Assembly (NCBI GenBank): GCA_963787255.1
Contig: CAWBCJ010000001.1
Coordinates: 19,540-83,539, forward strand
Direction of reading: 5' to 3'
From: Methanobacteriota archaeon
GTDB taxonomy: Archaea > Methanobacteriota > Methanobacteria > Methanobacteriales > Methanobacteriaceae
Length of the DNA stretch: 64,000 bases
Shown: one piece after another, positions 2,052 through 27,495 of the stretch
How positions within the stretch are numbered: position 1 is the stretch's first letter
Layout: the number at the start of each line of letters is the position of its first letter
Made by a program: the position numbers and the translations under genes
Notes under the pieces: generated by a model
Databases searched by the model: none
The model's input: only the letters and a program-made list of their open reading frames with translations
Told to the model about the DNA's origin: nothing

Positions 2052-2909
2052 ATGGAAGTTATACTTCAACAGTTTGCTAATCTCAGTGTTTTAATATATA
2101 TTGTTACCACTATGCTGTCTATGGGTCTTAATTTTTTCCCTAAACAATTTTTAGAACCTTTAAAGGATAAGAGTCTCATATTAAAGTCTTTAGCTGCAAA
2201 TTTCATATTATTGCCCATCATAACCTATATTATACTGCAAGTGATTCCCCTAGAGCAGGGTCTTGCCATTGGCTTAGTTTTAATGGCTGCAGGGGCAGGA
2301 TCCCCCTTCATGCTGAAATTGGTTCAATTTATGAAAGCAGATATGGCATTTGCAGTGGGGCTGATGTTAATATTATCCATAGTGACCTTATTTTATATGC
2401 CATTAGTACTTTCTATTTTGTTACCCGGTGTTTCGGTAAATCCCCTGTCTATTGCAGTTTCCCTATTGGTCTTGATATTTTTACCCTTGATCATTGGAAC
2501 TGCTGTAAAGTCAAGGTATAGTGAAATAGCTAAAACTATTCAACCCACTTTTAACCAGATATCTAATATATTCATCTTCGTAGTGATATTTCTATATCTG
2601 GGTCTTAACTACCAGGACTTTCTGGCAGTATTCGGTACAGGAGCATTGATAGCTTCTTTAATATTTGTATTATCAGCTTTCTTAATAGGCTACTTACTAG
2701 GAGGCCCTTCCAAAAATACAAAATCAGTGCTAGGTATGGGGACTGCTATAAGAAACTCATCTGCCGCATTTGTGGTAGCAGTTACCAACTTTAGCTCAGA
2801 ATACGACGTCATGGCCATGATAATCGTAGTTTATATGCTCAGCATAATTACAATGATGATCATTTCAGGTGAGATGGGTAAAAGATCCAAAGGTTCAGAA
2901 ACACTATAA
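2052..2909 (+). CDS. Polytopic membrane transporter, bile acid:Na+ symporter (SBF/BASS)-like
   Basis: 285-aa ORF with about ten hydrophobic segments and AGGAG-like SD upstream. The family call is from overall resemblance by recall only. Confidence 0.55.
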   Translation: MEVILQQFANLSVLIYIVTTMLSMGLNFFPKQFLEPLKDKSLILKSLAANFILLPIITYIILQVIPLEQGLAIGLVLMAAGAGSPFMLKLVQFMKADMAFAVGLMLILSIVTLFYMPLVLSILLPGVSVNPLSIAVSLLVLIFLPLIIGTAVKSRYSEIAKTIQPTFNQISNIFIFVVIFLYLGLNYQDFLAVFGTGALIASLIFVLSAFLIGYLLGGPSKNTKSVLGMGTAIRNSSAAFVVAVTNFSSEYDVMAMIIVVYMLSIITMMIISGEMGKRSKGSETL

Positions 2910-2928: not shown

Positions 2929-3753
2929 TTATAATTTACCAAATCTAGTATTAGAACTTCTAATACTAGCAGAATCCACAGCTTCCCATCTCCCACTGTT
3001 AACAAACTCTAACCTACCTTCAATTACTAATTTATCAATGATTTCCTTAGTTTCCCATTCTCCTTCATTATTATTTGGAAGCTTTGCAATTTTGCGAACT
3101 TGATCCAAAGAAACTGCTTGACCTACATTCAACTTACGGTAAACAATAGCTGCTTTATCTTCACTCATTTTAAATGAAGTCAGTCCTCTAATTTGGATAC
3201 GTTTCTCATAAAGTTCTTTTAAATCATCAGGAATATTCACAAAATTGTACCGATTCACTTTCCATAAATTAGTACCACAAATATTTTCAACTCTACCTGT
3301 TTCTCTTAACCGTTTACTCCAATGTTCTCTCCAAGCATATTTACTATCATTACCCGTAATTCTTTTGACCAATCTTTTTAGATAATCGGTGTTTACTTTA
3401 TCCTTAAAATATATGGGTCCTTTATCAAATTCATCAAAAAATTCATTTTCAGCCATAGTCCTTTTTTCATAAGCAACAGTGGTGGTTAATTCCTCACGTA
3501 TAGAACCTTCAGGTGGAAGTTTCAGTGGAATATCTCCATTATAATTTTGTGCCGTTTTATCTGCATCTACCAAATATCCGTGATTTAATAAGTTTTCTAA
3601 TGCCTCTTCTAAACTTATTCTGGTAGAGCGCCATGATTGACCATGATAAAAATAAACTGCTCTTGCAAATCTTCTCCACAAATCAGCATTTACAGCAGGA
3701 GGCCTGACCCTTTTCATAAGATCACCCATATAATTGCATTTGAACCTTTGCAT
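2929..3753 (-). CDS. Hypothetical protein (orphan); the N-terminus may be ribbon-helix-helix-like
   Basis: Long ORF (274 aa) with normal amino-acid composition. The N-terminal KRVRPPAVNADLWRRFARAV...SLEEALENLL loosely fits a strand-helix-helix pattern. No recognisable catalytic motif. The real start is probably one of the internal Met codons (MGDLMKRV). Confidence 0.45.
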   Translation of the reverse strand: MQRFKCNYMGDLMKRVRPPAVNADLWRRFARAVYFYHGQSWRSTRISLEEALENLLNHGYLVDADKTAQNYNGDIPLKLPPEGSIREELTTTVAYEKRTMAENEFFDEFDKGPIYFKDKVNTDYLKRLVKRITGNDSKYAWREHWSKRLRETGRVENICGTNLWKVNRYNFVNIPDDLKELYEKRIQIRGLTSFKMSEDKAAIVYRKLNVGQAVSLDQVRKIAKLPNNNEGEWETKEIIDKLVIEGRLEFVNSGRWEAVDSASIRSSNTRFGKL

Positions 3754-4059
3754 ATTTTCTTGAAAACGGGTCCTGTTTTTAAAAAAAAGACCTGTTTTCC
3801 GATATAATATTCATTTATATTATTATATTTATAAAAAAATAATAATATAATAATACCTAAAACATGTTCATCTTTCCTAATCTCAAAAAAAAGAGGATAA
3901 AAACATCTAAAAAAGGTTCTAAAATGTAATAATAACTTTTTTAAGGAAAATAGACTTTTAATATGTTTATTAATGTTGATTTTTTTAATATTTTCTATAT
4001 TTCTTTTTATTTTTGTGGTGTTTTTACCACCACCTTTGCAGGTTTCTATATTAGTGTTT

Positions 4060-4088
4060 TTCATGAGTGGTTGCCGCCCCCATTATAT
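4060..4088. repeat. Left copy of a 29-bp perfect direct repeat (ttcatgagtggttgccgcccccattatat)
   Basis: Identical 29-mer at 4831-4859. The flanking bases differ on both sides. GC-rich core in an AT-rich region. On the minus strand it reads ATATAATGGGGGCGGCAACCACTCATGAA, a TATA-like box about 20 nt before an ATG. Confidence 0.9.
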
Positions 4089-4092
4089 TATA

Positions 4093-4479
4093 TCAATTTT
4101 TTTTATTGTAGTGAATACCATAAACCTTAAATTTCTTTGAATATTTACGTTTTCCCAGCAAACGATCCGATTGATTTAATATGTGCCCTAATTTACGCCC
4201 TTTATTATCTAATGATAAAAAGAAAGGAGCATTCACAATTAAATCATTACTATGAATAAATTGCATTAATTCACGCGTTATAAAATCTTCCCCGTTCATT
4301 TCATTTTCTATATAATATAATGCAAGTTTTATGACATCCTTTTCGTATTTTAACTTCTTATTCCAAGCCTCTTTCGTGTTATCACGTCCCCTATTCCATT
4401 TTTTTAAGTAATATCCAAAATTATAACCCCACATAAACAACTCCATTTTTAAAGCTTTAAACTCTAAAAATAAAACCAT
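4093..4479 (-). CDS. Hypothetical protein (orphan), lying between the two 29-bp repeats
   Basis: 128-aa ORF; the likely start is MELFMWGYNFGYY. Basic, with no recognisable motif. Confidence 0.4.
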   Translation of the reverse strand: MVLFLEFKALKMELFMWGYNFGYYLKKWNRGRDNTKEAWNKKLKYEKDVIKLALYYIENEMNGEDFITRELMQFIHSNDLIVNAPFFLSLDNKGRKLGHILNQSDRLLGKRKYSKKFKVYGIHYNKKN

Positions 4480-4712
4480 TCTTCAGGTAACATTCCTTTA
4501 ACTTGATTTTGTGCTTTAATTGCACTTTTTGTGTTAATTTTAATCTCTGCAGCATGACCCCATTCATCGTATCTAATTGAATCTTGCACAGATTCTTCAG
4601 TAGGCAGTTTATAAAATTTTTTACTGCTTAAATTACAAAACAAAAAATTAATGAAACTATTTTTTAAAAATAAACGAATCCAATTATTCTTAAAATGATT
4701 CACTCGAAACTC

Positions 4713-4789
4713 TCGAAATCTTCGATTTCGAAGCGCGAAACATAGTTTCGCTGGCTTCGTTTCGATGCATCGAAAATCAAAGATTTTCG
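4713..4789. repeat. Array of four short hairpins/palindromes built on TCGAAA(A)TC half-sites
   Basis: Four elements: TCGAAATC-ttc-GATTTCGA (4713-4731); GCGAAAC-ata-GTTTCGC (4735-4751); the perfect 16-nt palindrome TTTCGATGCATCGAAA (4760-4775); and CGAAAATC-aaa-GATTTTCG (4771-4789). The last overlaps the previous palindrome. The array lies inside track ORF 4464-4835, whose translation looks non-protein-like. Confidence 0.8.
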
Positions 4790-4830
4790 CATAATTAGGG
4801 AAGGGAAGAATTAATCCTCCCTTAAATTGA

Positions 4831-4859
4831 TTCATGAGTGGTTGCCGCCCCCATTATAT
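4831..4859. repeat. Right copy of the 29-bp perfect direct repeat
   Basis: Identical to 4060-4088, offset 771 bp. Confidence 0.9.
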
Positions 4860-4935
4860 ATTTTCCCAAAACTTCTAATTTTATGTCTCGAACTAAGCTA
4901 AATTCTTTTTTTTTAGTTTGTGACCATGAACTATA

Positions 4936-5094
4936 TTATTTTATAATTTTGTGTTTTTCATTTTCACACCATGCACTAATCGCTTCTACCGCACCCTTTG
5001 AGAGTTTACCTTGTTTATCTCCATATTTTTCCCGGGTTAAAAGTCTGAATGTTTCTTCCAGGTCATCAGGTAAGTTAAATGTTATTGCTGCCAT
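4936..5094 (-). CDS. Ribbon-helix-helix (CopG/Arc/MetJ-like) small DNA-binding protein, 52 aa (below the ORF-track cut-off)
   Basis: Hand translation gives MAAITFNLPDDLEETFRLLTREKYGDKQGKLSKGAVEAISAWCENEKHKIIK. This matches the classic RHH strand (ITFNLPDDL) followed by two helices. GGAG lies about 8 nt upstream of the ATG. The overlapping plus-strand track ORF 4838-5116 looks spurious. Confidence 0.6.
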   Translation of the reverse strand: MAAITFNLPDDLEETFRLLTREKYGDKQGKLSKGAVEAISAWCENEKHKIIK

Positions 5095-5281
5095 GCATAA
5101 TTTCTCCACTAAATAGTCTATGTTCTTATTATATACTCATATTCATAGAGAGCATGTGAAAAGTAATAATTTTATGAATTCATAAATCATAAAAAAGTCA
5201 ATTATGATTAAAATTACATTTCAAAAGTGGAGACTTGTCATTTATATTAAAGATATGAAAATTAAAAGATTATATAAAGAG

Positions 5282-5935
5282 TTAAAGTTTATTTAAGGCA
5301 ATTTTAGCAGCATTTTGCTCTGCTTCTTTTTTACTTCCACCACTACCAATCCCACAACTTTCACCATTAATCATCACCGCCATGGTGAAGGTCTTATTAT
5401 GCGGCATTCCCTCTTCTTTAACTAACTCATAATTTACATCAAGACAGTCCTGATCACATAATTGTTTTAATTCAGACTTATAATCATAAAAAAAGACATC
5501 CTCATTTTCTATATGGGGTATAACAGTTTTAAAAATAAATTCCTTGACAATATGCAAGCCTTGATCCAGATATAATGCCCCAATAAAAGATTCAAACACA
5601 TCACTAATAATTGAATCAATTTCCCTTCGGGTTAATTCTAAACCTGCACCTAATTTTATATATTGATCTAATCCTAATTCCATTGAATAAACATAAAGTG
5701 CCTTTTTACACACATAATTAGAACGCATACGGGTTAACTGCCCTTCAGTTAACCCTGAATCTAGGTTATATAAAAATTCAGATACCACCAGATCCAGGAC
5801 TGCATCGCCTAAAAATTCTAATCTCTCATAACATTTATTGAGGTCATTTTCATTGGAATAAGACTCATGAATAAAAGCCAGCTCATAAAGATGCGCATTA
5901 ACTGGTTCAATTGAAAATTTTTTAAGTAATTGCAT
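5282..5935 (-). CDS. rnc: Ribonuclease III, bacterial class 1 type (catalytic domain + dsRBD)
   Basis: RNase III signature [14 protein letters not shown] second acidic cluster follows ([15 protein letters not shown]). C-terminal dsRBD-like [10 protein letters not shown]...[18 protein letters not shown]. 217 aa. Confidence 0.85.
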
Positions 5936-6069
5936 AATACTTCTATTTTATTATCCTGCATATTTATAGAATTTTAAATATTATACTGAAAAAGTATTGA
6001 ACTAAACTTTACTTCTATTAAACCGCAATATAAGGCATCAAACAAAAAAAAAAACACTTCCACAAATTT

Positions 6070-6175
6070 AAGAGGCGTATTGACCGTTATGGTGGTCGTA
6101 TTTGGGTGTAATCAGAATATGGAAAGGGTTCTACCTTTTTATTTCACTATAACTGTTAATGAATTAAAAAAATAA
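6070..6175 (+). pseudogene. 3' relic of a histidine-kinase gene (last ~30 codons of the HATPase domain)
   Basis: Read over three frames: RYGGRIWV / SEYGKGSTF / FYFTITVNELKK. This matches the kinase C-termini at 19444-19520 and 39908-40000 (HGG.IWVES..G.GSTFYFTIP). No upstream kinase sequence remains. Confidence 0.5.
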
Positions 6176-12527: not shown

Positions 12528-12642
12528 TAAATGTGGGATGTGAAGACACCAAACAAGATAAAGAAATTGAAGAAAAGTTAAAAGAAGATACTGGATGCGG
12601 ATGTGGCGAAGAACCCGTACAAGAGCCTGAAGAAGATGCTGG

Positions 12643-13418
<776 letters not shown>

Positions 13419-13422
<4 letters not shown>

Positions 13423-13841
13423 ATGCTAAATTAAAAGAAAAGCAAAATAAAAAGTTTAAAGTTGAATTATGGAATAATTGGGCTAAACAAAACTCTAATC
13501 TATTTACTGACTTAGTTGATGGCGCTACTATAGCAATAGCTATGACAGAAAACAATGAAAAGTTAGTCTTTTTAGAAAAAGGAAATAATGATTTAAACAT
13601 AAGTATAAAACCTCTAAAAGAATTAGAAAGTTCTAATGCAGATTTATTATTCGTTATCGACGAAAAAGACATTGAAGAAATATTAAAAGATGATGATCCT
13701 TTAAAATTCGTAAATTTACTTTCTTCTAGGAGAATAGAAGTTTATGGACTTATGGATCATTTACAACTTATGGATAAAGGATACACGAAGTTTTTAAACA
13801 ATTTAGGCATTAGTATAGGTGGAGGAAACTGCTGCGGTTAA
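13419..13841 (+). CDS. Hypothetical protein, possibly SCP2-like fold, ending in GGGNCCG
   Basis: 140-aa ORF whose start overlaps the previous stop (ATGA). The pattern [48 protein letters not shown] loosely resembles an SCP2 C-terminal half. It carries a terminal CC pair. Confidence 0.4.
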
Positions 13842-13876
13842 ATACCCCTTTTATAAAAATTTTGTAGGTAATTAAA

Positions 13877-14059
13877 TTGACTAAAGAAGAAAATAAACCA
13901 GTAATGGAAGGTAATCAGAATATTGGGCCCTTTTCAAATTGTGCTTGCATAAAACCTCAAAAGGAAGGCTTTATAGAAGCCATATGCGAAGTTTGTGATA
14001 AAGTATTTACAACAAATAAAGATGTTTATATCTGTCCAGAATGCCATGAAAAAAGCTAA
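13877..14059 (+). CDS. Small zinc-ribbon protein
   Basis: Contains C.VCDKVFTTNKDVYICPEC (two CxxC knuckles). Paralogous to the C-terminus of 15801-16037. TTG start per the track. Confidence 0.5.
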   Translation: MTKEENKPVMEGNQNIGPFSNCACIKPQKEGFIEAICEVCDKVFTTNKDVYICPECHEKS

Positions 14060-14147
14060 AAATATCTATCAGTAGGGAATTTATACGTTAAACTTTGAAA
14101 ATAAAGTAAAATTTCGGTTGATGATAAACCAAAAGGTTGTGGATATG

Positions 14148-14345
14148 GATGCCAGTAACACCAGAGCATGAAAAAGAATTTGAAAAAGCAGTAGAAGAGG
14201 ATAAAAAGAAACGAAGCAAATGCAGTATTTTTAATATAATAAATACAAAAAGAAGCGGTGAAAGCGATAAATGAAGTTTGTGAGAGTATATTACAACAAA
14301 TAAAGATGTTTATATTTGTCCAGATTGCCTTGGAAAACCAAGAAA
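14148..14345 (+). pseudogene. Decayed paralogue of the zinc-ribbon gene
   Basis: 14278-14340 (tttgtgagagtatattacaacaaataaagatgtttatatttgtccagattgcc) aligns with 13988-14050 of the intact gene, with a 1-nt gap. The upstream ORF MPVTPEHEKEFEKAVEEDKKKRSK... is in another frame. Confidence 0.3.
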
Positions 14346-14645
14346 TAAATGTTTTTTTTTATGTTAAAAGATATTAGATGGAACTAAAAAGTTAAATAAA
14401 GATGAATTGGTGTCAATCTTAATTATTTTTTTTATTGTTTTTAAAATATTTTTTTTTTATTACAATTAATTCGAAAAAATGGGATTTAGTATTAAATTTT
14501 TAATACTTTTAATTATAAAAAACAAGTTCCAGTAATACCAAAGGAAACCTTTATATGATATAAATTCAGACCCATATAGTGAGGTTAAAGGGTTATAGAG
14601 TATTTTTATAGGATTATTACGTTTTACCCTTAGAATTAGGGTTTT

Positions 14646-14670
14646 GTAATACTATATAATGAGTAATACT
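14646..14670. promoter_or_regulatory. Two direct repeats of GTAATACT bracketing a TATA-like box (ATATAATGA) upstream of cbiM
   Basis: The sequence is GTAATACTatataatgaGTAATACT, 34-58 nt upstream of the ATG at 14704. A third GTAATAC lies at 14532-14538. Confidence 0.3.
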
Positions 14671-14703
14671 GACCCTTATACAAAATTAAGGAGGATTTAA
14701 AAG

Positions 14704-15348
14704 ATGCATATACCTGATGGTTTAATTCCATTTCCACAATACCTAATATATGGTATTATATCTTTAATTGCAATATTCTTTGCTCTTAAATGGGCAAGAA
14801 GTAATCTTGATGAAAGAGCAATTCCATTATTAGCTGTTTTATCTGCCGGTATTTTCGCTATACAAGCCATGAATATTCCCATTCCCTTTGGAACAAGCGG
14901 ACACATGGTGGGTGCGGCATTAGTAGCTATTGTATTGGGCAGTCCATGGGCAGCAGTCCTGGTCTTATCAATAGTATTAGTACTCCAAGGATTGTTATTC
15001 GGTGACGGCGGAATGACCGCCTTAGGCGTGAACATATTCAACATGGGAGTTGTAGGAGGATTTGCAGGATTCTACACATACAAATCACTTAAAAATATTA
15101 ATGGAAAGTTCGCAGTGTTTACTGCAGGATGGATGTCAATATTTATAGCTTCAATTGTCGCTGCATTTGAACTTGCAATATCCGGAGCTTTCCCACTGGA
15201 TTTAGGCCTTTTATACATGGGAGGATTCCATGCAATGTATGGACTAATTGAAGGAGCAATAACATTAGTAGTAGTTTTAGCAATACAAAATGTAAGACCC
15301 GACTTATTCTCTCTTGAACAAAAACCAAGTGAGGTGCCAGCAAAATGA
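14704..15348 (+). CDS. cbiM: ECF-type Co/Ni transporter substrate-capture component CbiM/NikM
   Basis: Has the diagnostic N-terminus MHIPDG. 214 aa and multi-TM, with the GHMVGAAL motif region. Confidence 0.85.
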
Positions 15349-15644
15349 GCCCAAAAAACAAAAAATTTCTACTAGGTGGAATAACAATTGCTTTAATAAT
15401 AGCCATTCTTGCACCCTTTTTAGCTTCATCTAATCCAGATGGTTTAGACAGTACTGCTCAAAAAGTGATGGAGAATCCGGAAACAGAACCTGCATTTGAG
15501 TCACCATTTTCAGACTACACCATTCCCGCTTTAGGTGAAGAAAATCCATTAGGCGGTGTGGCAGCTTTAGTTCTTGGGACTTTACTGGTTCTTGGAATTG
15601 CATATGGCCTGGGAATAGGGTTAAAAAAAGAAAAAGTAGAGTAA
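15345..15644 (+). CDS. PDGLE-domain small membrane protein (CbiN/NikN-like partner of CbiM)
   Basis: Two TM helices flank SSNPDGLDS (PDGLE motif). Its start overlaps the cbiM stop. No cbiQ or cbiO follows. Confidence 0.6.
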
Positions 15645-15800
15645 TTCTACTTTTCTATCTATTTTTTTTACAATTTAATTTTCAATTCACCCTAATTTCT
15701 TAGGAAGTGTTTGACACGTAATATCGACTAATTTTTTACCCACAATGGTCGCCATATTATACAGGAAAGTGATTAATATGAAATCATATTGAAGTGATAT

Positions 15801-16037
15801 TTACCTCTTTTCACATTTAAAACATAAATTTGTGTCTCTGTTTGTTTTAAATACTTTTCCACATTTTTGGCATGTAACCTGCTGGATACTAGATTCTTTT
15901 TTACAAAAATTCTTAAACATTCTAACGGAACAATTGTAATTATTGGCTTGGATTCCTGCTTTTGCTTTCCGGTCTAAAGCTTCTTCCTCATACTTCCTTC
16001 TAAGAGCTTTTTTCCTTTTTTGATCATCACTTGGCAT
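15801..16037 (-). CDS. Small basic zinc-ribbon protein
   Basis: The lysine/arginine-rich N-terminus is followed by CQKCGKVFKTNRDTNLCFKCEKR. Paralogue of 13877-14059. Confidence 0.5.
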   Translation of the reverse strand: MPSDDQKRKKALRRKYEEEALDRKAKAGIQANNYNCSVRMFKNFCKKESSIQQVTCQKCGKVFKTNRDTNLCFKCEKR

Positions 16038-16085
16038 TTATATCTCCAAATTTATAGAAAGAATATACATTATTTAGTATTAAAT

Positions 16086-16754
16086 TTATTTAACTCCTCT
16101 GATCACTACAAATGAACCTTCCCCGTATCCTTTCTTTACAGGTTCAATATCTTTTAATTTCACTGATGACTGGAATAATGTCTGTCTAAAACTAAAATCT
16201 CTGAAATGGGCCTTTTCCATATATGAGACAACTTCTTTAACTGAATAAAATATTGCATCTTTGTAAAATGTGCTCTCATTTCTTTGTTTTTTATAGAATT
16301 TCCCCAGTAAACTATTGGCATCTATAAAACCGATTATTAGATAGCCTCCAGATTTAAGCACCCTATTTGCCTCTTCTAACGATTTTTCAACATCATTGAG
16401 GAAACATATTGTTGTAACCATTAAAACAAAATCAAATTGGGAATCAGGAAAAGGAAGGGATTCAGCAACTCCTTCAATGAATTCTATACCTCTTTTTTGG
16501 GCTATTTTTCCCATATTTTTGGATGGATCAATACCTAATTTAATTCCAAGCGGAGCTGCAAAGCGCCCACTTCCAACACCAATTTCAATACCGTTTCTAC
16601 TTTTAGGTAATAGTTCTTTAACGGCTTGAAGCTCTGATTTATAAGAAGACTTGTTTTTATCAAACCATTGGTCATATTTTTCTGCATATTTTTCAAAAGG
16701 CTCAAATTTCACCATTATTTTCTCTCTTCTGTTCTTTAAACCATTTAATGCCAT
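16086..16754 (-). CDS. Class I SAM-dependent methyltransferase
   Basis: Motif I is IEIGVGSGRFAAPLG. Also has PFPDSQFDFVLMVTTICFL and LKSGGYLIIG. Confidence 0.75.
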   Translation of the reverse strand: MALNGLKNRREKIMVKFEPFEKYAEKYDQWFDKNKSSYKSELQAVKELLPKSRNGIEIGVGSGRFAAPLGIKLGIDPSKNMGKIAQKRGIEFIEGVAESLPFPDSQFDFVLMVTTICFLNDVEKSLEEANRVLKSGGYLIIGFIDANSLLGKFYKKQRNESTFYKDAIFYSVKEVVSYMEKAHFRDFSFRQTLFQSSVKLKDIEPVKKGYGEGSFVVIRGVK

Positions 16755-16857
16755 ACTGTTATTATATTTTTTTTATTAAATTGTAATTATTTCTTTGGGT
16801 AGTGCTTAAAAAAAAATTAATAATACTTAAATTATATATTATTAATGGTGAATTATT

Positions 16858-17439
16858 ATGAAAAAGACAATTGAAAATTTGGCAAAAGCTTTTATTGGTG
16901 AAAGCCAGGCAAGAAACAGGTACACAATGTATGCAAAAGTTGCAAAAAAAGAAGGATATGAACAAGTTTCTGAAATCTTCCTGAATAATGCAGAAAACGA
17001 AAGAGAACATGCAAAATGGTCAATGAAAATGATCAACGGATTAAAAAAAGCAGGTGAGGTTCCAGACGAAATTATAGTTAAAGCAGACGCTCCAACAACC
17101 TTTGGAACTACAGTTGAAAACCTTAAAGCCTCGATTACAGGTGAACATTACGAATATACTGAAATGTATCCCCAATTTGCAGATGTAGCTGAAGAAGAAG
17201 GGCTAAAAGACATTGCTAAGAGATTAAGGGCAATTGGTAAAGTAGAAGAGCATCACGAAGAACGATTCAAGAGAATTTTAGACCAAATAGAATCTGGTAC
17301 AGTCTGGAAAAAAGATAAAGAAGTTGAATGGGTTTGCAGAAAATGTGGTTATGTGCATCGTGGAATGGAACCTATTGAAGAATGTCCTTCCTGTGATCAC
17401 CCTAAAAAATACTTCCAGATCAAATGCGAAGAATATTAA
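16858..17439 (+). CDS. rbr: Rubrerythrin
   Basis: The ferritin-like di-iron half has E..H motifs (ENEREHAKW, EEHHEERF). The C-terminal rubredoxin-like part is CRKCGYVH...CPSCDHP. Confidence 0.9.
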   Translation: MKKTIENLAKAFIGESQARNRYTMYAKVAKKEGYEQVSEIFLNNAENEREHAKWSMKMINGLKKAGEVPDEIIVKADAPTTFGTTVENLKASITGEHYEYTEMYPQFADVAEEEGLKDIAKRLRAIGKVEEHHEERFKRILDQIESGTVWKKDKEVEWVCRKCGYVHRGMEPIEECPSCDHPKKYFQIKCEEY

Positions 17440-17492
17440 AAAATAATCTTTTTTTTATTATTTAAAGTAATATTTACAGTGTTTGGAGCTAC

Positions 17493-17532
17493 GAAATCTA
17501 TGATTTCTACGGCCCACGACTTCAGTCGCGGG
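17493..17532. repeat. GAAATC-tat-GATTTC hairpin followed by a second GC-rich hairpin (CCCACGAC-ttca-GTCGCGGG)
   Basis: Read directly from the sequence. It sits exactly at the truncated 3' end of the PAS relic 17539-17917. Confidence 0.6.
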
Positions 17533-17538
17533 AGTATA

Positions 17539-17917
17539 TCAGAAGCTTCTATTGAACATTTTTTGAAGGTGAAAATCTTTAAATTTATCTTCAGGAATGA
17601 AATCAGTTATTTTCTTTCCAATCATCTTTTCTAGAGGAATTTTAGACATTGAGGCTAGTTGACTGTTACAATAAAAAATAGAGTAATCAGGGGGCCAATA
17701 TAGCTACTCCTTGGTTCATCCCTTCGATTAAAACCCGGTAAATATAGTCTGCACCCTTAAATGTAAAAGTCTGAGCTCCTTCAGGAGTATTGACCAGTAG
17801 TGCATCTACTTCACTACTTCGGATAGCATCAAGAGTTTCTTCAGATTCGAGAAGTCTTATTTTAAGCTCATCTACTTCTGCAAGAAGTTCTTCTCTTGTC
17901 TTTTCCTTTTTTGTCAT
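17539..17917 (-). pseudogene. Truncated and frameshifted PAS sensor relic
   Basis: ORF 17687-17917 (coiled coil plus start of a PAS domain, ...GMNQGVAILAP) continues in another frame as DYSILYCNSQLASMSKIPLEKMIGKKITDFIPEDKFKDFHLQKMFNRSF*, then stops. No output domain is present. Confidence 0.6.
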
Positions 17918-18294
17918 TTAAACTCCCTAAGATTAGTGGATTATTTTTTGTAATATTTGGTATCTCATTCTTTAGGTGCAATTCTAGGAGGATCCTATCC
18001 TTATTTAAAACACTGCTATCTGGTTTGTTTGTATCTGGTTTATATCATCCTATATCTCTATATTTTCAATGATTAAAACTCAAGAATGCTACATAATTAT
18101 CTGAATTAATTGCATTTAAATAAGTTGTGATTTAATTATAAAAGAAAAATGAAAACTTTTAAATATTATTTTATAGTAATTTTTATAATAATTTTGGTTC
18201 AAAAAATAATAGTTTTAAACACGTTTAATGCTACTTATAAAATCTAGTTTTAAAAATAGGAATTTAATATCATAGTAAAATGGGGGTGTTAAAT

Positions 18295-18573
18295 ATGAGT
18301 AAATGGTTAAATAACGAAAACCCGATTTGGGAAAATGCAGTAAAGCCCTGTTTGCTTTTAATGTTTTGTCCATACGGAAAATTAGCTGAAGAATTCCCAA
18401 TAAGCGAGAATAAGAAAACCTGCGAAATCTTGGGACATGACTGCCCTGTATTTTACCAAGCCTCACATATAGTTGAAGGCGACGGTGAAAAAAAAGTGAA
18501 TCAGGAAGAATTTGATAAATTCTTCAAGGAAATAGCAGCAAAATCTATAGGAGATAAGGAACGAATTTCCTAA
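18295..18573 (+). CDS. Hypothetical small cysteine-containing protein
   Basis: SD GGGGGTG lies 7 nt before the ATG at 18295. The sequence is MSKWLNNENPIW...CPYGKLAEEFP...GHDCPVFY. The opposite-strand ORF 18215-18466 looks spurious. Confidence 0.45.
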   Translation: MSKWLNNENPIWENAVKPCLLLMFCPYGKLAEEFPISENKKTCEILGHDCPVFYQASHIVEGDGEKKVNQEEFDKFFKEIAAKSIGDKERIS

Positions 18574-18784
18574 AATACGACGCCCATTTTTGCTAAAGAT
18601 ATAATGGATAAAAAAAAGATGCATGAACATTGAAATATTATTTTTTTTCCAGTTTATTTTGGGAATGAAAAATAAGTGCATGAGCAATATAAAAGAATAA
18701 TCTGATGGTTTAACCCATGCACCCCCTTAAATTCATGCAATTAAATATTCATGTGTTCCTACAAAAATTTCCAGGCAGTATATT

Positions 18785-19249
18785 TTATGCTGTACCGCCG
18801 GTACATTCACCATTTTGAGCATCCACAAATATTTCACCAACTGTTATACCATCCTGGATTACAGGAACAAAATATGTAGGTATATTAGCCATCATACCTA
18901 ATACTGGTGTCCCAACAGAAAAAGAAGTGTCCCCTAAATGATTAGAAGCTACAACTTTAGCTTCTGAGGCGGATACCTTCACATTGGATGTATTCTTAGT
19001 AGATGTTTTCTTAGCTGTTGTTGAAACTGATTTAGGTGTTGCTGGTTTAGCTGTTGTTGAAACTGACTTAGGTGGTGTTGATGCTGTTAAATTATTTACT
19101 GGAATAGAATTTTGAATAGGTTGGCTTTGATTAACAACCGATGCTACAGGAGTCTGAACGTTTTTATTCATCAAATTAGCAGCAGAATAACTAATACCCA
19201 CCCCTATAACTGCAATTAATGTAAATACTACAATAACTTTTTTATTCAT
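18785..19249 (-). CDS. Membrane-anchored secreted protein with a Ser/Thr-rich linker and a PepSY-like C-terminal domain
   Basis: An N-terminal TM helix is followed by the repeated KPATPKSVSTTA linker, then VSASEAKVVASNHLG...FVDAQNGE. The family call is weak. Confidence 0.45.
   Translation of the reverse strand: MNKKVIVVFTLIAVIGVGISYSAANLMNKNVQTPVASVVNQSQPIQNSIPVNNLTASTPPKSVSTTAKPATPKSVSTTAKKTSTKNTSNVKVSASEAKVVASNHLGDTSFSVGTPVLGMMANIPTYFVPVIQDGITVGEIFVDAQNGECTGGTA
19011..19082. repeat. 2 x 36-bp tandem repeat (encodes the PKSVSTTAK repeat)
   Basis: The units are ttagctgttgttgaaactgatttaggtgttgctggt / ttagctgttgttgaaactgacttaggtggtgttgat. Confidence 0.85.
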
Positions 19250-19443
19250 TATATGGCCCCCTCTCTGGTCATTTAAATGTTATTTAAAGCTAAGAAACAA
19301 AATTAAATTATTTTAGATAAAATGTATTCATCTTTTATATAATAACAATTATTTATAATTTTTTATTATAAAAAACAGAAAACTTTAAATATTACTTTTC
19401 AACTTTTGCATAATTCAAAAAGAAACAAACTAATAGTCAGAAA

Positions 19444-20160
19444 TCACTCATTCATTATAGGAATTGTAAAATAAAAAAGTAGAACCTTCACCTAATTTGA
19501 GGATTCAACCCAGATACGGCCGCCAATCAGCATCACTATCTAATTGACCTTTATAACGCCTCTCCAGTAGCTGCGTAAAACTAGCAATCGTTCGTAATGG
19601 TTCTTGTAGGTCGTGACTGGAAACATAGGCAAATTGTTGTAATTCAGCGTTGGAACGTTTTAAATCTTCTACAAGTTTTTTTGATTGTTTTTCTGCCTGT
19701 TTACGCTCTGTGATGTCCCGGGAAACTGTAAGATATGCGTTCCTTCCTTTGTAATTGATAGTATGACCATAAATTTCTACTGGTATCTTTTTACCTTCTT
19801 TAGTTACATGAACTATTTCAAAATTCATAAATCCCTTTTTATCTATTTCTACAGCATTTTTAGGCATTTCAACCCTTCTATCAGGAGCTACTATATCTGC
19901 AGGGCCCATATTTAACATTTCTTCTCGGGTGTAACCTAAATTCTTTTTAATCCAACTTCATTTATTTCTATGTACTTTCCTGGCAAGCCATCTTCACTTA
20001 TTTCACTTAAACTAATCATATCAGTTGATTTATCGAATAATAAACGGAATTTATCTTCACTTCCATATAACTCCTCTTCAGCTTTTTTAAGTTCAGTTAT
20101 ATCTGTTATTGTTATACGATATTTTTCATCACGCCTGTCATGTATGGGCATGATTTCCAT
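19444..20160 (-). pseudogene. PAS-histidine kinase relic with 5' truncation, a frame change and an internal deletion of most of the kinase core
   Basis: It starts mid-PAS (FYVKMEIMPIHDRRDEKYRITITDITELKKAEEEL). A frame change follows after EVGLK. The HisKA H-box [36 protein letters not shown] then runs straight into ...[22 protein letters not shown] in another frame. Compare the full-length paralogue at 39908-42178. Confidence 0.65.
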
Positions 20161-20180
20161 TTTAACATAAAATGGTGATT

Positions 20181-20295
20181 ACAGGTGCTAAAAATGAACA
20201 AAACCAATGCAAGGGTTTGTAAATGTAAGAATGTATCGATATTATGTTGATAAGAAGATGCAGAATAAGAACACGAAAAAATACATTAATATTCC
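20181..20295 (+). repeat. Copy C (5'-truncated) of the dispersed repeat
   Basis: Aligns with the right two-thirds of copies A and B (caggtgctaaaaatgaac...aaatgtaagaatgtatcgat...gataagaagatgcagaat.agaacacga). It abuts the truncated PAS relic. Confidence 0.65.
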
Positions 20296-20386
20296 TTGAA
20301 TGATTAACATGTGAAATTAGAAGATTAGCTATTTTCTTATTCTGATTTTTAATCTGTCTTTAAATTTAATATTGTGACATTATATG

Positions 20387-20999
20387 TTATAAGCCAAAGA
20401 ATTTTAAGAAATTATTTCCAAGGTTCTTAAGCTCATTTAATACCGGACTTAAAGTATATCCAGAACCTGAATCATTATGCTGTCCAGAAGAATCGGGACT
20501 ACCGGATGCGTTTCCAGTATGTGAATTGTTGGATGGTGTGGTCTTTCGAATCAGAACCAGTTTGATTAAAACCAGTTCTTTGACCAGAATCAGTTCGTTG
20601 ACTAGAATCAGTTGTTTGATTGGAATCAGTTTGATTAGAACCAGTTTCTTCAACTATTATTCTACCTGAAGCACCAGAGTATCTATCACGATATGGATAA
20701 GTTCCGGGATTATCAAAGGTATAGCTGTAACTATTTAGTGGTCCTATATCTCCACTGCTGGGGAACTTACCATCAGTACTGGTAACAGTAAATACCACGC
20801 CACTAAAAATGTTACGATCAAAGTTTTCCCATGATACAGTGGTGCCAGGTTTAACAGTTGTAGAAGACGGGCTAAAAGAACCTCCCGCATCAAGTTTATC
20901 AAACACTACCACGGTTCCTGAGTTTAAAAAGGCACATCCAGAAATTGAAACCACAGCTAAAATAGTTAGGGATATTATTAGTAATTTATAATCTTTCAA
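20387..20999 (-). pseudogene. Lipoprotein with a cupredoxin-like domain and a Ser/Asn/Gln/Thr-rich repeat tail; apparent frame change near 20525
   Basis: Signal peptide plus lipobox-like VSISGC, then a beta-rich domain (TVKPGTTVSWENFD...GTYPYRDRYSGASGRIIVEE). The tail continues more plausibly in the frame of ORF 20387-20653 (..SNNSHTGNASGSPDSSGQHNDSGSGYTLSPVLNELKNLG..). Confidence 0.5.
20545..20650. repeat. Degenerate 15/18-nt tandem repeats (tgattRgaaYcagtt-like units)
   Basis: Six to seven units are visible by eye. They encode the SNQTDSNQTTDSSQRTDSGQRTGFNQTGSD tail. Confidence 0.7.
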
Positions 21000-21126
21000 T
21001 TATTATCACCAGTCTATATTATATGATCCTTAAATAATATAAATGTAATACTTATTTGAAATAAAATATTATATGGAAAAATATAGTCAACTATTATTAA
21101 GCCAAATTACTTTCCAAACGCTCTCA

Positions 21127-21295
21127 CACTAAACCCAATAAACATAAATCACTACAACTACTGGTGATAAAATTGGATGTAACAGATGATGATTGTAAGA
21201 AAATGCAAGAAAGTAACCATGATAATGGATAAGAAGATGCGAAGATGCAGAATAGAACACGATAAATATGTTTATAATGTTAGACGAAAACACTT
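21127..21295 (+). repeat. Copy D of the dispersed repeat (most diverged)
   Basis: The ends align well with copy B (cactaaacccaataaa..., gataagaagatgcgaagatgcagaatagaacacgataaata...tataatgttaga). The centre has diverged. It overlaps track ORF 21129-21413, which is therefore probably not coding. Confidence 0.6.
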
Positions 21296-21914
21296 CTTTG
21301 AAGGCGTTATTAAATTTTCGCTTGCTGTCGTTGTCTAAAAGTTCTATATCATTTTTTTTATCTGTTGTATCCATAAGAACTAACATTGCTTTGTTAATGC
21401 AGGAGGTGGCCAAAACTTTATAAGTGATGAAATAAAATGAACTAATTTACAAAAGTGAAGGTGATAGAAAATGGATTTAAATGAGATTAAAATATTTATT
21501 TATAATTTGCTTGATATTCGCAAAAAAAGGTAGTTTTGTATTTCATCATACCAAAATAGGTTAGGGGAACAGGCTTTCCTGCCTTTTTATCCATTTAATA
21601 TTTCTATTATTTTAAAAATATTGTTAAAATGAGAATAAGCTCTTTTTGAATAGTCCTTTTTAGATATTGAATTATACATCTTTTTTTGGGTTTAATTTTG
21701 GTTAGATTAGTTAGTATGTTAATTGTTGAAATTTTAATCTATGGATCCTTTTATTGTTGTCTGTTTTTTTCTGTGTGGATGTATTCTACGATGGTGGTCA
21801 TAACCTTAAGGCTTCAGTATTAGTAAGTAATATTAATTATGAAAATCATAATAATAGTGTTGTTTGGTTGAAAATTATGATGTTTTAAATTGCGTAGAAA
21901 AACGGGTGGTAGTA

Positions 21915-22145
21915 ATGAAAATAAGTGATGAATTGAAAGGAAAAGAAGTTATAGATGAAAATGGGGATAAAGTTGGAGAAGTAAGCGATGTGGAATGGAA
22001 TCCCCAAATGAATATGGTTGAATCTCTCCTAGTTTCTGAAGGAAAAGCAGCTAAAATTGGAATGGGAGAAAAAAAGGTCATAGCATTTGAGGATATAGAC
22101 ATCATCGGAGAAAAAGTTCTTTTAAAACGATACATGCCTCGATAA
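21915..22145 (+). CDS. PRC-barrel domain protein
   Basis: The sequence is MKISDELKGKEVIDENGDKVGEVSDVEWN...VIAFEDIDIIGEKVLLK. SD GGTGGT lies before the ATG at 21915. Confidence 0.7.
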   Translation: MKISDELKGKEVIDENGDKVGEVSDVEWNPQMNMVESLLVSEGKAAKIGMGEKKVIAFEDIDIIGEKVLLKRYMPR

Positions 22146-22428
22146 TACTATGTTATAAAAAAAATACTTAAATTACCTTTATATTTCTTTTTTGGAATGA
22201 TTAAAGGGAAGGTATACAAAAAATGGATGATAGAGGACAATATTCAATAATATATATCCTAGTGGTTATAGTAGTCATCTTAATAATATTGAGACTATTA
22301 GGTATCTTCTAAAACTAAACCCGGCTATGTAAAAACTACTAGTTATCTATTCATGCGTGAAAATCCTTAAATTTTTTTTTAGGAGACAATTAAAAATTGG
22401 TATGAAATTATAATTTGGAGGTGAAAAA

Positions 22429-22834
22429 TTGGATCGAAGATTTTTGGGATTGATTATAATCATAATCGTTATAATCATAGGCGGGTGTATATCTCTTTAC
22501 TTCTATGAACTTAAATCAAAATGCACAAGCTCCAGTTAATCAAAGTGGAACAAATGGCAGTGCAAATAATACAAACAATACAGTTGCAGCTACAATTAGC
22601 ATTCAAAATGGAGCATTTAATCCTAATAACCTTACTGTTAAAACAGGTACTAATGTTCAGTGGATAAATAATGATAACGCATCGCATCAGATAATAAGTG
22701 ATAGTGGAGCATTCCAGAGTCCTATGCTGAATACTGGGGGCGTGTATAATTTCTATTTCGCTAAATCTGGTATTTTCGGCTACTATTGTGGATTACATCC
22801 TACTGAAACAGGTACAATTACGGTAACTCCTTAA
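22429..22834 (+). pseudogene. Cupredoxin-like (plastocyanin/amicyanin-type) protein whose N-terminal anchor is in a different frame
   Basis: SD GGAGGTGA is followed by a TTG at 22429, giving LDRRFLGLIIIIIVIIIGGCISLYFY (TM helix with a GGC lipobox-like motif). The domain in ORF 22505-22834 has H..., YYCGLHPTETGTITV (C-x2-H, with no Met in the usual position). Confidence 0.5.
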
Positions 22835-23009
22835 TTTTTTAGAGGATAAATTATATAATCCTCAAATTTTTTTTTATATTAAGGTAGTTGCATTTTTTTG
22901 TTTTTGTGATTATTGGTTTTTTTTATATAATCACAATATATTAAGTAATATTAAATATAGAAATAGTATTACTATTGTTCTTTTAAAAAATGAGGGAGGC
23001 CGATTTACT

Positions 23010-23465
23010 TTGAATGAAACCCAAAAAAGAATACCCAACAACATATTGCTGATAGAAGACAATCCCGCCGATATAAGATTAATCAAAGAACTATTCAAAG
23101 ATTATAAAACAGAAAATGAAATATACACCGTTAATGACGGCGTTAAAGCCCTAAAATTCCTATATCAACATGGCCAGTATGAAGATACGCCCCGTCCAGA
23201 TTTAATACTTCTTGATTTAGGTTTACCGCGTAAAGACGGTTTTGAAGTATTAAAAGAAATAAAAAACGACAAAAAACTAAAAAACATCCCTGTAATTATT
23301 GTAACTGTTTCTAATGACCCCGAAATTATTAATAATGCTTATAAACTCCAAGCTAATTGTGTAATTATTAAGCCATTAGATATTGATGACTTCAACAGAT
23401 GCATTAAAAGTATGACTGATTTTTGGTTTAATATTGTTAAATTGCCCATTAGCATTCTTGTTTAA
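23010..23465 (+). CDS. Stand-alone CheY-like response regulator receiver
   Basis: Contains LLIEDNPAD, PDLILLDLGLPRKDG (phospho-acceptor Asp), VIIVTVS and CVIIKPLD. TTG start after SD GAGGGAGG. Confidence 0.85.
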   Translation: MNETQKRIPNNILLIEDNPADIRLIKELFKDYKTENEIYTVNDGVKALKFLYQHGQYEDTPRPDLILLDLGLPRKDGFEVLKEIKNDKKLKNIPVIIVTVSNDPEIINNAYKLQANCVIIKPLDIDDFNRCIKSMTDFWFNIVKLPISILV

Positions 23466-23497
23466 TAATAAAAATAATATATAAGGATTCTAAAAAA

Positions 23498-23932
23498 ATG
23501 GAAGAAAATCATAAAATCAATATTTTATTAATGGAAAATGAAGAACCTGATAAAAGCATTATAAATTTATTAAAAAACTTTTCAAGTGAAAATCAGGTTA
23601 AATTATCCGTTTTTGATACTCCAGAAGAAACATTAGATCACTTAAAGCAAATCGTAGCATCTTCTGAATTTCAGGGACATAATATTCTGTTATTTTATTC
23701 AAAACCACCATTAAATGATGTTATGGATGTTATATGGGAAATTAAAGAAAGTCCAGATTTAAGGATTACTCCTGTATTTATTATAGCAGAATCATTAGAA
23801 GATGTAGATATTAATGAAGCTTATAAATGTCATTTAAATTGTTTTATTGCTAAACCTCAAGATGTAGAAGGATTAATTCGGATTATAGATTCTTTTAAGG
23901 AGTTATGGCTTAAATATGTAAAATTACCCTGA
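23498..23932 (+). CDS. Pseudo-receiver domain protein (receiver fold without the phospho-acceptor Asp)
   Basis: Colinear with 23010-23465 (ILLMENEEPD / NILLFYSKPPLND / PVFIIAES / NCFIAKPQD / ELWLKYVKLP). However, LLD is replaced by LLF and ED by EN. Confidence 0.6.
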   Translation: MEENHKINILLMENEEPDKSIINLLKNFSSENQVKLSVFDTPEETLDHLKQIVASSEFQGHNILLFYSKPPLNDVMDVIWEIKESPDLRITPVFIIAESLEDVDINEAYKCHLNCFIAKPQDVEGLIRIIDSFKELWLKYVKLP

Positions 23933-24121
23933 AAAAAATTGTTAAAAAAAGATTCACCTCAAAAATATCATGTTAGGCTTAAAGAAGTGGATAAGGGGAT
24001 TGGATATTGATTTTTCTGCTTTTTTTTGCACTGTTTTTTTTAAATTTTGTATTATAATTGTTTTTTGCGTGTTTTAACTATCATTTACATAAGATTTAAA
24101 TACTAAAAAGGTAATAAAATA

Positions 24122-24201
24122 AGTATGACTAGTATTACAAATTGTGGTCTGTTTTATGTTCAGCCCAGGGAAACAAGATAACCCTGGGCACCCCCTCCGT
24201 T
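24122..24201 (+). ncRNA. Candidate small RNA or structured leader: promoter + ~40 nt + 8-bp hairpin + CCCCCTCC
   Basis: TATA-like TTTAAATA at 24095-24102. Hairpin GCCCAGGG-11 nt-CCCTGGGC at 24163-24189, then ACCCCCTCC. It is homologous in layout and promoter block to 32615-32709. Not assigned to any known RNA family. Confidence 0.35.
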
Positions 24202-24389
24202 AAAACTATATTATTTTTGATAAATAAGATAAAAACTAAACCACATTTTTTTTCTATTCAATTTTTAACTTCCCATTTTTTTACTTAGAAAAAGTTGTAT
24301 AATCCAATTTTATCATAGTATTATATTTTATATAATTTGTATTACAAATAGATAGTAATGAATAAAAATAATAATATGGTGATTACTAT

Positions 24390-24737
24390 ATGAGTTTCGT
24401 GGAAATTGCAACAACAGATGAATTAATGGATGGTACTATGAAAATGGCTACAATTGAGGGGCGTGAAATCCTGTTAGCCCGAATTGGAGACAATTATTAT
24501 AGCGCAGATAATCGCTGCCCCCATATGGGCGGTAACCTATCAATGGGCAAACTAAACGGAACCGTAATAACATGCCCTCGACACCACAGCCAATTTGACC
24601 TAACCGATGGCCATGTAATCCGCTGGACAGACTGGACCGGACTAAAATTATCTATAGGTAAAGCATTAAAGTCACCTCGACCCCTTAAAACCCATGAAGT
24701 CAAAATAGAAGAAAATAAAATAATGGTCGACCTATAA
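24390..24737 (+). CDS. Rieske [2Fe-2S] domain protein
   Basis: Contains CPHMGGNL and CPRHHSQF (C-x-H ... C-x2-H). Confidence 0.85.
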   Translation: MSFVEIATTDELMDGTMKMATIEGREILLARIGDNYYSADNRCPHMGGNLSMGKLNGTVITCPRHHSQFDLTDGHVIRWTDWTGLKLSIGKALKSPRPLKTHEVKIEENKIMVDL

Positions 24738-24913
24738 AAAAAAAAGTTTTAGGGATTAAGCTTCCAAAGTTTCATTTATATATTCCATATCTTATTTGCT
24801 TGGAATTAATTCGTAATGATGCAAGTAGTAAACTCATGAATAAATCCCGTTATTAAATATTATATGAAAAAAATTAATTAAAAAGAACTTAAAAGTTGGA
24901 GGTTTAAAAAAAG

Positions 24914-25216
24914 ATGAAGAAAATAGCTATAATAGTGGCTTTAATGCTAGTTTTAGGAGTAGTATTCATATCAGGATGCACTACAACTCCAACAAATACT
25001 ACCGGAAACAATAGTGGACAAAATAAAAGTTCAGGCGTACCGGGATACAGCACAGGACAAATAATAAGCATTGGATCAGAAAACATTGTATCTGACTTGA
25101 ATCAGGAAAATCCCATGATTCATAGGGATACTAATCATTTAAACTTATATTCCCACTTTTTTTTGAAAACTAATAAAAAGAGAATCAATTTCAAAAACAA
25201 ATACCAAAAAAAATAA
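24914..25216 (+). CDS. Small putative lipoprotein
   Basis: Signal peptide plus FISGC lipobox, then a Thr/Asn/Gly-rich linker. The C-terminal third looks low-complexity, so the real 3' end is uncertain. Confidence 0.4.
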   Translation: MKKIAIIVALMLVLGVVFISGCTTTPTNTTGNNSGQNKSSGVPGYSTGQIISIGSENIVSDLNQENPMIHRDTNHLNLYSHFFLKTNKKRINFKNKYQKK

Positions 25217-25326
25217 TAGATAACCCAAATTAAAATTATAATCAACCCAATATAAGCATATTATCCTATCAAAATGGTCTATTTAGAGCACTTAAAACTG
25301 GTAATAGTTAAGAGAATTAAATACAA

Positions 25327-26716: not shown

Positions 26717-26718
26717 CT

Positions 26719-27495
26719 TCAATCATTTCCCCAACTTTTTTTTTTATCAGTCAATTTTTTTCGGGCTTTAGCAATTGCAGTTATGGGAGGAACACCTTTA
26801 GGACATACCTGAGCACAATTTCCGGAAGAACTCACATGACCACCATCCATCTGGCATATCGCCCAATTTCAGCCTTTCAGTTTCCCTTGCTTCCCGGGGA
26901 TCAATAGAGAAACGATAAAGTTTAGCTAAAGCAGCAGGCCCTAGATAATCTGGATTTACGCTATCTACCGGACATGCACCAAAACAAGCCGCACAGAGAA
27001 TGCAGTTAGTATATAATTCAAGTTCAGGTACAGCAGAAGGATCCATAAGCCTTTCCTTTTAAGGAGCAGGATCCCTTGGTCTAAAAACAGGGTCCACAGC
27101 CTGGTAATATTTGAAAAATTTGGTCATATCCACAATAAGATCCTTTATTACTGGAAGATGTGGAAGTGGCTCCACTAAAATCTCTTCTTCAGGATTCCAG
27201 GGTACCGTTATCTCTTCGATTGCAGAATAAGGAACAAGATTCATTTGTAGTTCTCCTTTAAGTAGAGATGCCACTTGTGTTCGGCAGGCAAGTCTTGGAA
27301 CTTTGTTAATGAGCATTGCACAGGTACCACATACAGCACCCCTACAAGAATAATGGAAAGCTAAGGAATCATCAAATTTTTCTTGAAACTGAAATAAAGC
27401 ACCCAATACAGTCAATCCCGGATTTAATTCAAGTTTAAAAGAATCATAACGAGGAGAATCATTCCCTCATTGTATCTATAGACTTTTAGTTTCAT
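26719..27495 (-). pseudogene. Succinate dehydrogenase/fumarate reductase iron-sulfur subunit (SdhB/FrdB type) with two frame changes and one in-frame TAA
   Basis: MKLKVYRYNEG, then a frame change. The 2Fe-2S site is SCRGAVCGTCAMLINKVPRLAC. After ...RPRDPAP there is an in-frame TAA (27059-27061), then KERLMDPS...CILCAACFGACP. A frame change near 26820 leads to SGNCAQVCPKGVPPITAIAKARKKL. Confidence 0.75.

Follow-up and report, generated by a model that had tools for sequence, protein, structure and literature searches.

A stretch of 64,000 nt from a Methanobacterium MAG (the window, G000:C1:19540-83539) carries an intact class 1 ribonuclease III gene, rnc, of a known and already annotated kind, whose relatives form a single clade across the archaeal family Methanobacteriaceae. 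Taking the evidence together, we consider it probable that this gene encodes a functional class 1 RNase III, that it goes back to a single old transfer from Bacillota, that the copy of the gene at the site conserved among its congeners is dead, and that the window copy has been relocated. In the scenario that we propose, the gene would have passed once from a Bacilli-like donor into the ancestor of the Methanobacteriaceae, after that ancestor had split from the sister families. The enzyme would presumably act as an Mg2+-dependent homodimer that cleaves double-stranded RNA. Purifying selection would since have preserved it in most of the family, next to EndA, the normal splicing endonuclease of archaea. 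In the present genome, where the rnc at the conserved site is a pseudogene, the window copy would have displaced the 5' part of a kinase gene, and it abuts the decayed remnant of an integrative element.

In the window protein, Pfam recovers one RNase III domain and, C-terminal to it, one dsRNA-binding domain (dsRBD), and nothing else (Table 1). It matches the NCBIfam equivalog TIGR02191 (“ribonuclease III”) at 224.2 bits (cut-off 166.25), the alignment taking in positions 2-219 of the 219 in the model. Beyond the residues of the signature and the second acidic cluster, E64 is likewise kept, making six of the six catalytic acidic residues (E37, E40, D44, E64, D112, and E115), and these are invariant or nearly invariant in the alignment of relatives (alignment A1). 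We take their metal-binding equivalents in Aquifex to be E37, E40, D44, E64, D107, and E110. The dsRBD contains the motifs NKTF (180-183) and KKEAEQ (202-207). Among solved structures, the protein aligns over its whole length with the Thermotoga maritima RNase III 1o0w (E 5e-31), and the second RNase III domain of Drosha (RIIID b), together with its dsRBD, also aligns with it in the structure comparison. An earlier note on this DNA, made from the sequence alone, had read the full class 1 architecture (signature, second acidic cluster, and C-terminal dsRBD) in this open reading frame, and Pfam, TIGR02191, and the residue check bear this out.

Table 1. Features of the rnc locus, in window coordinates
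Feature	Position	Strand	Basis or remark
rnc, intact class 1 RNase III gene	5282..5935	-	ATG start, 217 aa plus stop; TIGR02191, dN/dS
RNase III catalytic domain, aa 14-141	5513..5896	-	PF14622 (Ribonucleas_3_3) E 7e-32; PF00636 (Ribonuclease_3) E 4e-24
dsRNA-binding domain, aa 152-217	5285..5482	-	PF00035 (dsrm) E 9e-21, profile positions 1-66 of 66
Signature ERLEFLGD, aa 37-44 (E37, E40, D44)	5804..5827	-	read in translation
Second acidic cluster SDVFES (D112, E115)	5588..5605	-	read in translation
TATA-like box TATAAATA, about 25 nt before the ATG	5961..5968	-	read in sequence
3' relic of a histidine-kinase gene (HATPase_c C-terminus), in-frame TAA, 5' part missing	6070..6159	+	matches intact kinases
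Small RHH-like gene, 57 aa, first gene downstream of rnc	4936..5109	-	no Pfam match; paralogs in the genome
Three near-orphan ORFs of 123, 128, and 274 aa	2929..4835	-	element remnant

The gene is under purifying selection, with dN/dS values of 0.07-0.17 against nine congeners, and its G+C content of about 0.31 is like that of the surrounding DNA. Judged from its residues and domains, the protein is predicted to be enzymatically active. The position of the TATA-like box would imply a leaderless or short-leader transcript. The sequence upstream of the gene, including this box, is retained in two variants of the locus on contigs C2 and C3 and is absent at a further rnc locus of the same genome, on contig C18.

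These three contigs hold the only other rnc-like stretches in the genome, and all three are broken. The one on C18 (C18:84594-85259) lies between a gene for a CxxCxxCC protein and the cluster F15-F29-fen1-F24...F20, and the same neighborhood holds an intact, syntenic rnc in the congeners G006, G010, and G004; fen1, the CxxCxxCC protein, and a TPR protein are the conserved neighbors of rnc in congeners. The C18 copy bears four lesions, namely, a +1 indel, a change of TTA to TAA inside ERLEFLGD, a 2-bp insertion, and a 1-bp deletion. Since the flanking genes are intact and fen1 is single copy, we regard it as a true pseudogene at the conserved site, and the presence of a substitution and a 2-bp insertion between intact neighbors argues against an assembly error. 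A comparable pattern is seen in G009, with a broken rnc beside F15/F29/fen1 and an intact copy elsewhere, and in G002 a dsRBD relic adjoins the F19 gene. The window gene, for its part, has none of the conserved-locus neighbors (the fen1 cluster, F15/F29, and F19) that the C18 copy has. The rnc loci of 16 congeners form at least three synteny groups, and the window neighbors flank rnc in none of these 16 genomes, so that the window gene and the rnc genes of its congeners have no neighbors in common. Hence, the window gene is a relocated survivor, the only intact copy in the genome, standing at a secondary site made by rearrangement. We also considered orthology of the window locus with a locus of G002 that combines rnc with a PAS-kinase gene, for which the DNA homology, limited to the gene and to PAS-domain paralogy, gives no sufficient ground.

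The neighbors of the window gene are as the earlier note had described them, an orphan/RHH block on one side and the 3' relic of a histidine kinase on the other. The relic, translated from about 6082 to 6156 (RYGGRIWV-stop-SEYGKGSTF...), matches the C-termini of intact kinases elsewhere in this genome, such as that at C29:480733 (80%). In contigs from soil metagenomes, the DNA before position 6078 runs on as an intact G2 box (GIGLAISKRI), and one such contig joins 6066 to 6308 with the relic absent, a junction of the type found on C3. The intact G2 box and the relic-free junction suggest that the kinase gene was truncated when the rnc-bearing segment arrived.

On the other side, the four minus-strand ORFs at 2929-5109 match no Pfam or PHROG family, and the largest of them, orf274, has only 4 relatives among 5.8 billion proteins. 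The RHH-like gene has a homolog of 70% identity next to the integrase end of an island in another Methanobacterium-like genome (L146; ena:ERZ28599369 scaffold_24, 12566-27357). This island begins with a phage-type integrase and comprises about 25 mostly tiny, unassigned ORFs, a DUF2188 gene, and an N6/N4 DNA methyltransferase. Homologs of the RHH-like gene, orf128, and orf274 occur in it in the same order as in the window, which identifies the orphan block as a cut-down integrative element; L146 is its intact counterpart and may be a methanogen provirus or an integrative plasmid. One soil-metagenome contig of 1.8 kb runs from orf274 to the 3' end of rnc, collinearly and with about 95% identity, and the linkage of the orphan block, the RHH-like gene, and rnc therefore exists outside this assembly. 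A search of the site for terminal repeats of an insertion found only short or imperfect ones. Imperfect inverted repeats at 1663-1723 and 5149-5194 (79-84% complementary) bracket a transporter gene, the orphan ORFs, and the RHH-like gene, and a perfect 29-nt direct repeat (4060-4088 and 4831-4859) lies inside the element remnant. The proposal that the gene came by insertion or replacement thus stands insofar as the site is rearranged and the conserved-locus copy is dead, but the gene that moved is a Methanobacterium rnc and not a bacterial one.

C2 and C3 are small contigs that each begin with their broken rnc stretch and run collinear with C1:23.9-44.9 kb; in window terms, C2 (1-13643) and C3 (1-21319) follow 4385-25334, with deletions. 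C2 is 88-92% identical to the window region and 95% identical over rnc, and C3 is 94-98% identical to the region but only 74-84% identical over rnc. Given that many other small contigs of the assembly (29 contigs, 95% completeness, 4.57% contamination) are likewise near-copies of parts of large ones, C2 and C3 most probably represent the window locus in co-assembled variant strains rather than extra copies in one cell. Such strain-variant “bubbles” of metagenome assembly probably inflate the apparent copy numbers in this genome. Long ORFs cover 0.45-0.60 of contigs C1-C3 (0.60 of C1, the window contig) versus 0.73-0.77 of the main contigs; in view of this lower coverage, the contamination, and the strain-variant contigs, some of the frame breaks are possibly assembly errors.

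The window copy may have arisen by a duplication within the lineage or by import from a related strain, perhaps with an element. Import from another strain of Methanobacterium, possibly as cargo of an integrative element and followed by functional replacement of the resident rnc, is a course of events that we hold to be possible, if rather doubtful. It would account for the homology between the window and C18 copies being confined to the gene (window 5307-5952, 83% nucleotide identity), with different DNA upstream, and for rnc standing directly before the RHH-like gene of the element in the same orientation. The variants on C1, C2, and C3 moreover diverge far more strongly over rnc (74-95%) than they do over the right flank (97.7%), as after recombination, and a comparison of G006, G000, and G009 shows rnc in no fewer than three different places around the fen1 cluster. 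One DNA tree, on the contrary, places the window copy as the sister of the C18 pseudogene (support 84/90); when the pseudogene of G009 is added, this grouping becomes a polytomy, and an AU test neither favors nor rejects the sister grouping (p 0.35). Also speaking against import, the related island L146 carries no rnc, and searches of IMG/VR viral contigs and of GenBank records of methanogen phages turned up nothing related to the window rnc or to orf274; the GenBank phage records yielded only matches of 34-46% identity to the RNase III, in bacterial phages, and none to orf274. By either course, the gene that we regard as a relocated survivor presents a small, clear case of paralog turnover, with a pseudogene left at the conserved locus and an intact gene at a rearranged, element-scarred site.

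Beyond this genome, rnc is the rule within the Methanobacteriaceae rather than the exception, a family-wide trait that we believe to be under-appreciated. Counted as full-length TIGR02191 matches over the cut-off in whole genomes, which were sampled and are in some cases incomplete, the gene is present in 20 of the 22 Methanobacterium genomes and in 226/285 genomes of the family, from 23 of its 27 genera. The same search found it in none of the 23 genomes of one genus of the family (g3) and in none of 15 genomes from three sister families of the same order or class (0/9, 0/5, and 0/1). A wider search, nominally of the phylum, covered just these same four families, with more genomes and no new lineages. 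The closest proteins to the window RNase III all belong to Methanobacterium (M. oryzae, M. aggregans, and MAGs of Methanobacterium sp.), at 76-88% identity, and these relatives carry the name ribonuclease III in their sources already. The gene is thus vertically conserved across the family, but not across the order, and its neighbors differ from one genome to another.

Some genomes of the family have more than one full-length rnc. In G201, two intact copies lie in a 10-kb duplicated segment of 99.7% identity (G201:C1:27000-37116 and G201:C3:63937-74055), in which a homolog of the transporter gene at window position 2052-2909 adjoins rnc. G159 also has two intact copies, inside duplicated segments of C3 and C4 that are 90-98% identical. 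Both cases may be real duplications or strain variants. A second “rnc” of the MAG G158 (G158:C6:1376-2035, locus L053) lies on a contig of 3.4 kb and branches among bacterial sequences; this contig is a contaminant.

Phylogenetic analysis drew relatives from 1.84 billion representative proteins, and a first tree was built from the best 127 single-domain matches together with 37 sequences from Methanobacteriaceae. The latter form one clade, with SH-aLRT support of 96 in this tree and of 93 in a second tree of 99 rows; in the first, two deep subclades within it (supports 97 and 100) track groups of genera. The nearest clusters outside the family are 46-51% identical to the window RNase III. Their contigs contain genes for Mur ligase, SpoVS, Coat_F, DnaG, WXG100, CHAP, and LysM, with SMC directly after rnc, a gene content from which we identify their sources as Bacillota-like bacteria. 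The named relatives of these clusters among GTDB species genomes are uncultured Bacilli, Erysipelotrichaceae, a Clostridium MAG, Oceanobacillus, and similar organisms, and for most of the 150 closest representatives the named best match belongs to Bacillota. Four long proteins among the closest representatives, P0123 (409 aa), P0126 (480 aa), P0129 (594 aa), and P0133 (2391 aa), contain two or three RNase III-like stretches, or one embedded in a longer chain, and may be fusions or tandem forms.

In the second tree, the Methanobacteriaceae join 13 bacterial sequences (uncultured Bacilli, Erysipelotrichaceae, and a Clostridium MAG) and then Methanococcus maripaludis, in a clade with support of 96. 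This clade nests in turn inside a clade of Bacilli (99) comprising Enterococcaceae, Streptococcaceae, Staphylococcaceae, Bacillaceae, and Paenibacillaceae. Both trees come from quick searches; the named set was sampled with a Bacillota query, and only two Actinomycetota sequences set the root. Within this frame, the nesting of the Methanobacteriaceae enzymes among those of Bacilli appears moderately supported. The most economical reading of these sequences would be a single early transfer from Bacillota, after which the gene descended vertically and was lost in places; the direction and the date of that transfer are as we infer them. Methanococcus could be either a separate recipient or a secondary one: with M. 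maripaludis in the same clade, a single transfer followed by spread from archaeon to archaeon and two transfers are not distinguishable.

The opposite direction, in which RNase III was ancestral to the class I methanogens (Methanobacteriales and Methanococcales), was often lost among them, and was acquired from archaea by the related uncultured Bacilli, would accommodate the RNase III of M. maripaludis (47% identical) in that same clade. We consider this improbable, in that within the clade the Methanobacteriaceae group with bacterial sequences (93) and not with Methanococcus, the clade as a whole is nested in Bacilli, and the three sister families have no rnc in the 15 genomes searched.

Much less credible still is a recent, sporadic transfer from a bacterium, with insertion at the present site in this genome or its close kin. 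The rearranged site beside mobile-element debris might invite such a view, as might the characterization of archaeal RNase III as “sporadic” and “accidental” by Nicholson (PMC3867540). Against it stand the gulf between the closest Methanobacterium proteins and the nearest bacterial ones, the presence of the gene as a single clade in most genomes of the family, its host-like G+C content, and the decayed second copy at the conserved rnc locus of the genus; neither patchy presence, nor closest homologs in another domain, nor atypical composition is found. The horizontal acquisition surmised in the earlier note is accordingly right as to an ultimately bacterial origin, with a clade nested among Bacillota, and wrong if taken as recent, given the host-like G+C and purifying selection; the note's “sporadic,” as applied to archaea, is contradicted in this family by the counts and by the two deep subclades. 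Finally, we dismiss the notion that a binning or assembly artefact placed a bacterial contaminant contig in the MAG: its measured contamination and the bacterial rnc on the small contig of G158 give a precedent, but the window contig is 144 kb long and has Methanobacterium paralogs throughout, and its rnc is 76-88% identical to rnc of cultured species of Methanobacterium (M. oryzae and M. aggregans).

If the preferred reading of an old, vertically maintained enzyme holds, the question of its role in the archaeal cell arises. The known biology of bacterial RNase III suggests rRNA-flank duplexes and sense/antisense duplexes as candidate substrates. The genome also encodes EndA, and the flanks of its 16S and 23S rRNAs fold to long duplexes with bulges compatible with bulge-helix-bulge motifs; the folds are minimum-free-energy predictions, too noisy for calling such motifs. 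Long duplexes and bulges appear alike in genomes with rnc (the present one and G051) and in genomes in which it was not found (G024 and G028), so that nothing so far ties rnc to rRNA maturation. That the Methanobacteriaceae have recruited a bacterial RNase III into their core RNA metabolism, where it would act on rRNA-flank duplexes in parallel with EndA or in the clearance of sense/antisense pairs, is an idea that we put forward as speculative and, at present, unlikely. If true, the Methanobacteriaceae, together with M. maripaludis, would be the first archaea for which a dsRNA-specific processing pathway is defined, and a natural counter-example to the view of archaea as being without one.

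The window protein is an ordinary enzyme of the Bacillota-like kind, and neither an Argonaute nor a Cas9 accompanies it. Its own genome yielded no Cas9, nor did 200 genomes of the family yield a genuine one; the control genomes contained no Cas9 by which to gauge the sensitivity of this search. The only match over the cut-off, a full-length Cas9 at G239:C273:2047-6078 (TIGR01865, 544 bits), was rejected: it contains 12 in-frame TGA codons, and the contig is almost certainly a bacterial contaminant with code 4 (Mollicutes-like) in a Methanobacteriaceae MAG. RNase III has been stated to be absent from archaea (PMC8708148; PMC5961385; PMC5965381), and this absence has been used to explain their lack of type II CRISPR systems (PMC5965381). 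With RNase III present in the family and Cas9 not found in the 200 genomes, it follows that RNase III alone has not brought type II systems with it.

In the collection of papers searched, no study dealt with an archaeal class 1 RNase III, and the phrase “archaeal RNase III” did not occur. The gene itself is unremarkable and has its annotation already; what the present analysis brings out is that a whole, ecologically important family of methanogens, including gut and rumen genera, carries a conserved RNase III under selection. M. maripaludis, with an orthologue-like gene and genetic tools, offers a way to the role of the enzyme in an archaeal cell.

Among known systems, the bacterial class 1 Rnc proteins (those of Escherichia coli, Aquifex aeolicus, T. 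maritima [1o0w], and Bacillus subtilis) are like the window protein in combining an RNase III domain with a dsRBD in about 220 aa, and the latter further has, as they do, the ERLEFLGD signature, the six acidic catalytic residues, and a full-length match to TIGR02191. Unlike them, it occurs in an archaeon that also keeps EndA, and its identity to the closest bacterial proteins is 46-51%. Its gene likewise stands outside the rnc-era or rnc-smc operon of bacteria, the conserved neighbors being fen1 and the genes for the CxxCxxCC and TPR proteins. EndA, the usual enzyme for the rRNA-flank job of RNase III in archaea (PMC8339473), has an unrelated fold and cuts single-stranded bulges, not duplex; it is a functional counterpart of the window RNase III and not a relative. 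The nearest archaeal parallel is the RNase III of M. maripaludis (MMP1526; WP_048064113 and others), similarly an archaeal class 1 enzyme, of 228-229 aa, 47% identical and in the same clade. MMP1526 is annotated as rncS, ribonuclease III, and two analyses of the same Tn-seq data disagree on its essentiality (EI 4 versus LogFC -0.91; PMC4418687). It differs from the window enzyme in belonging to another order and in branching outside the subgroup formed by the Methanobacteriaceae and Bacilli sequences.
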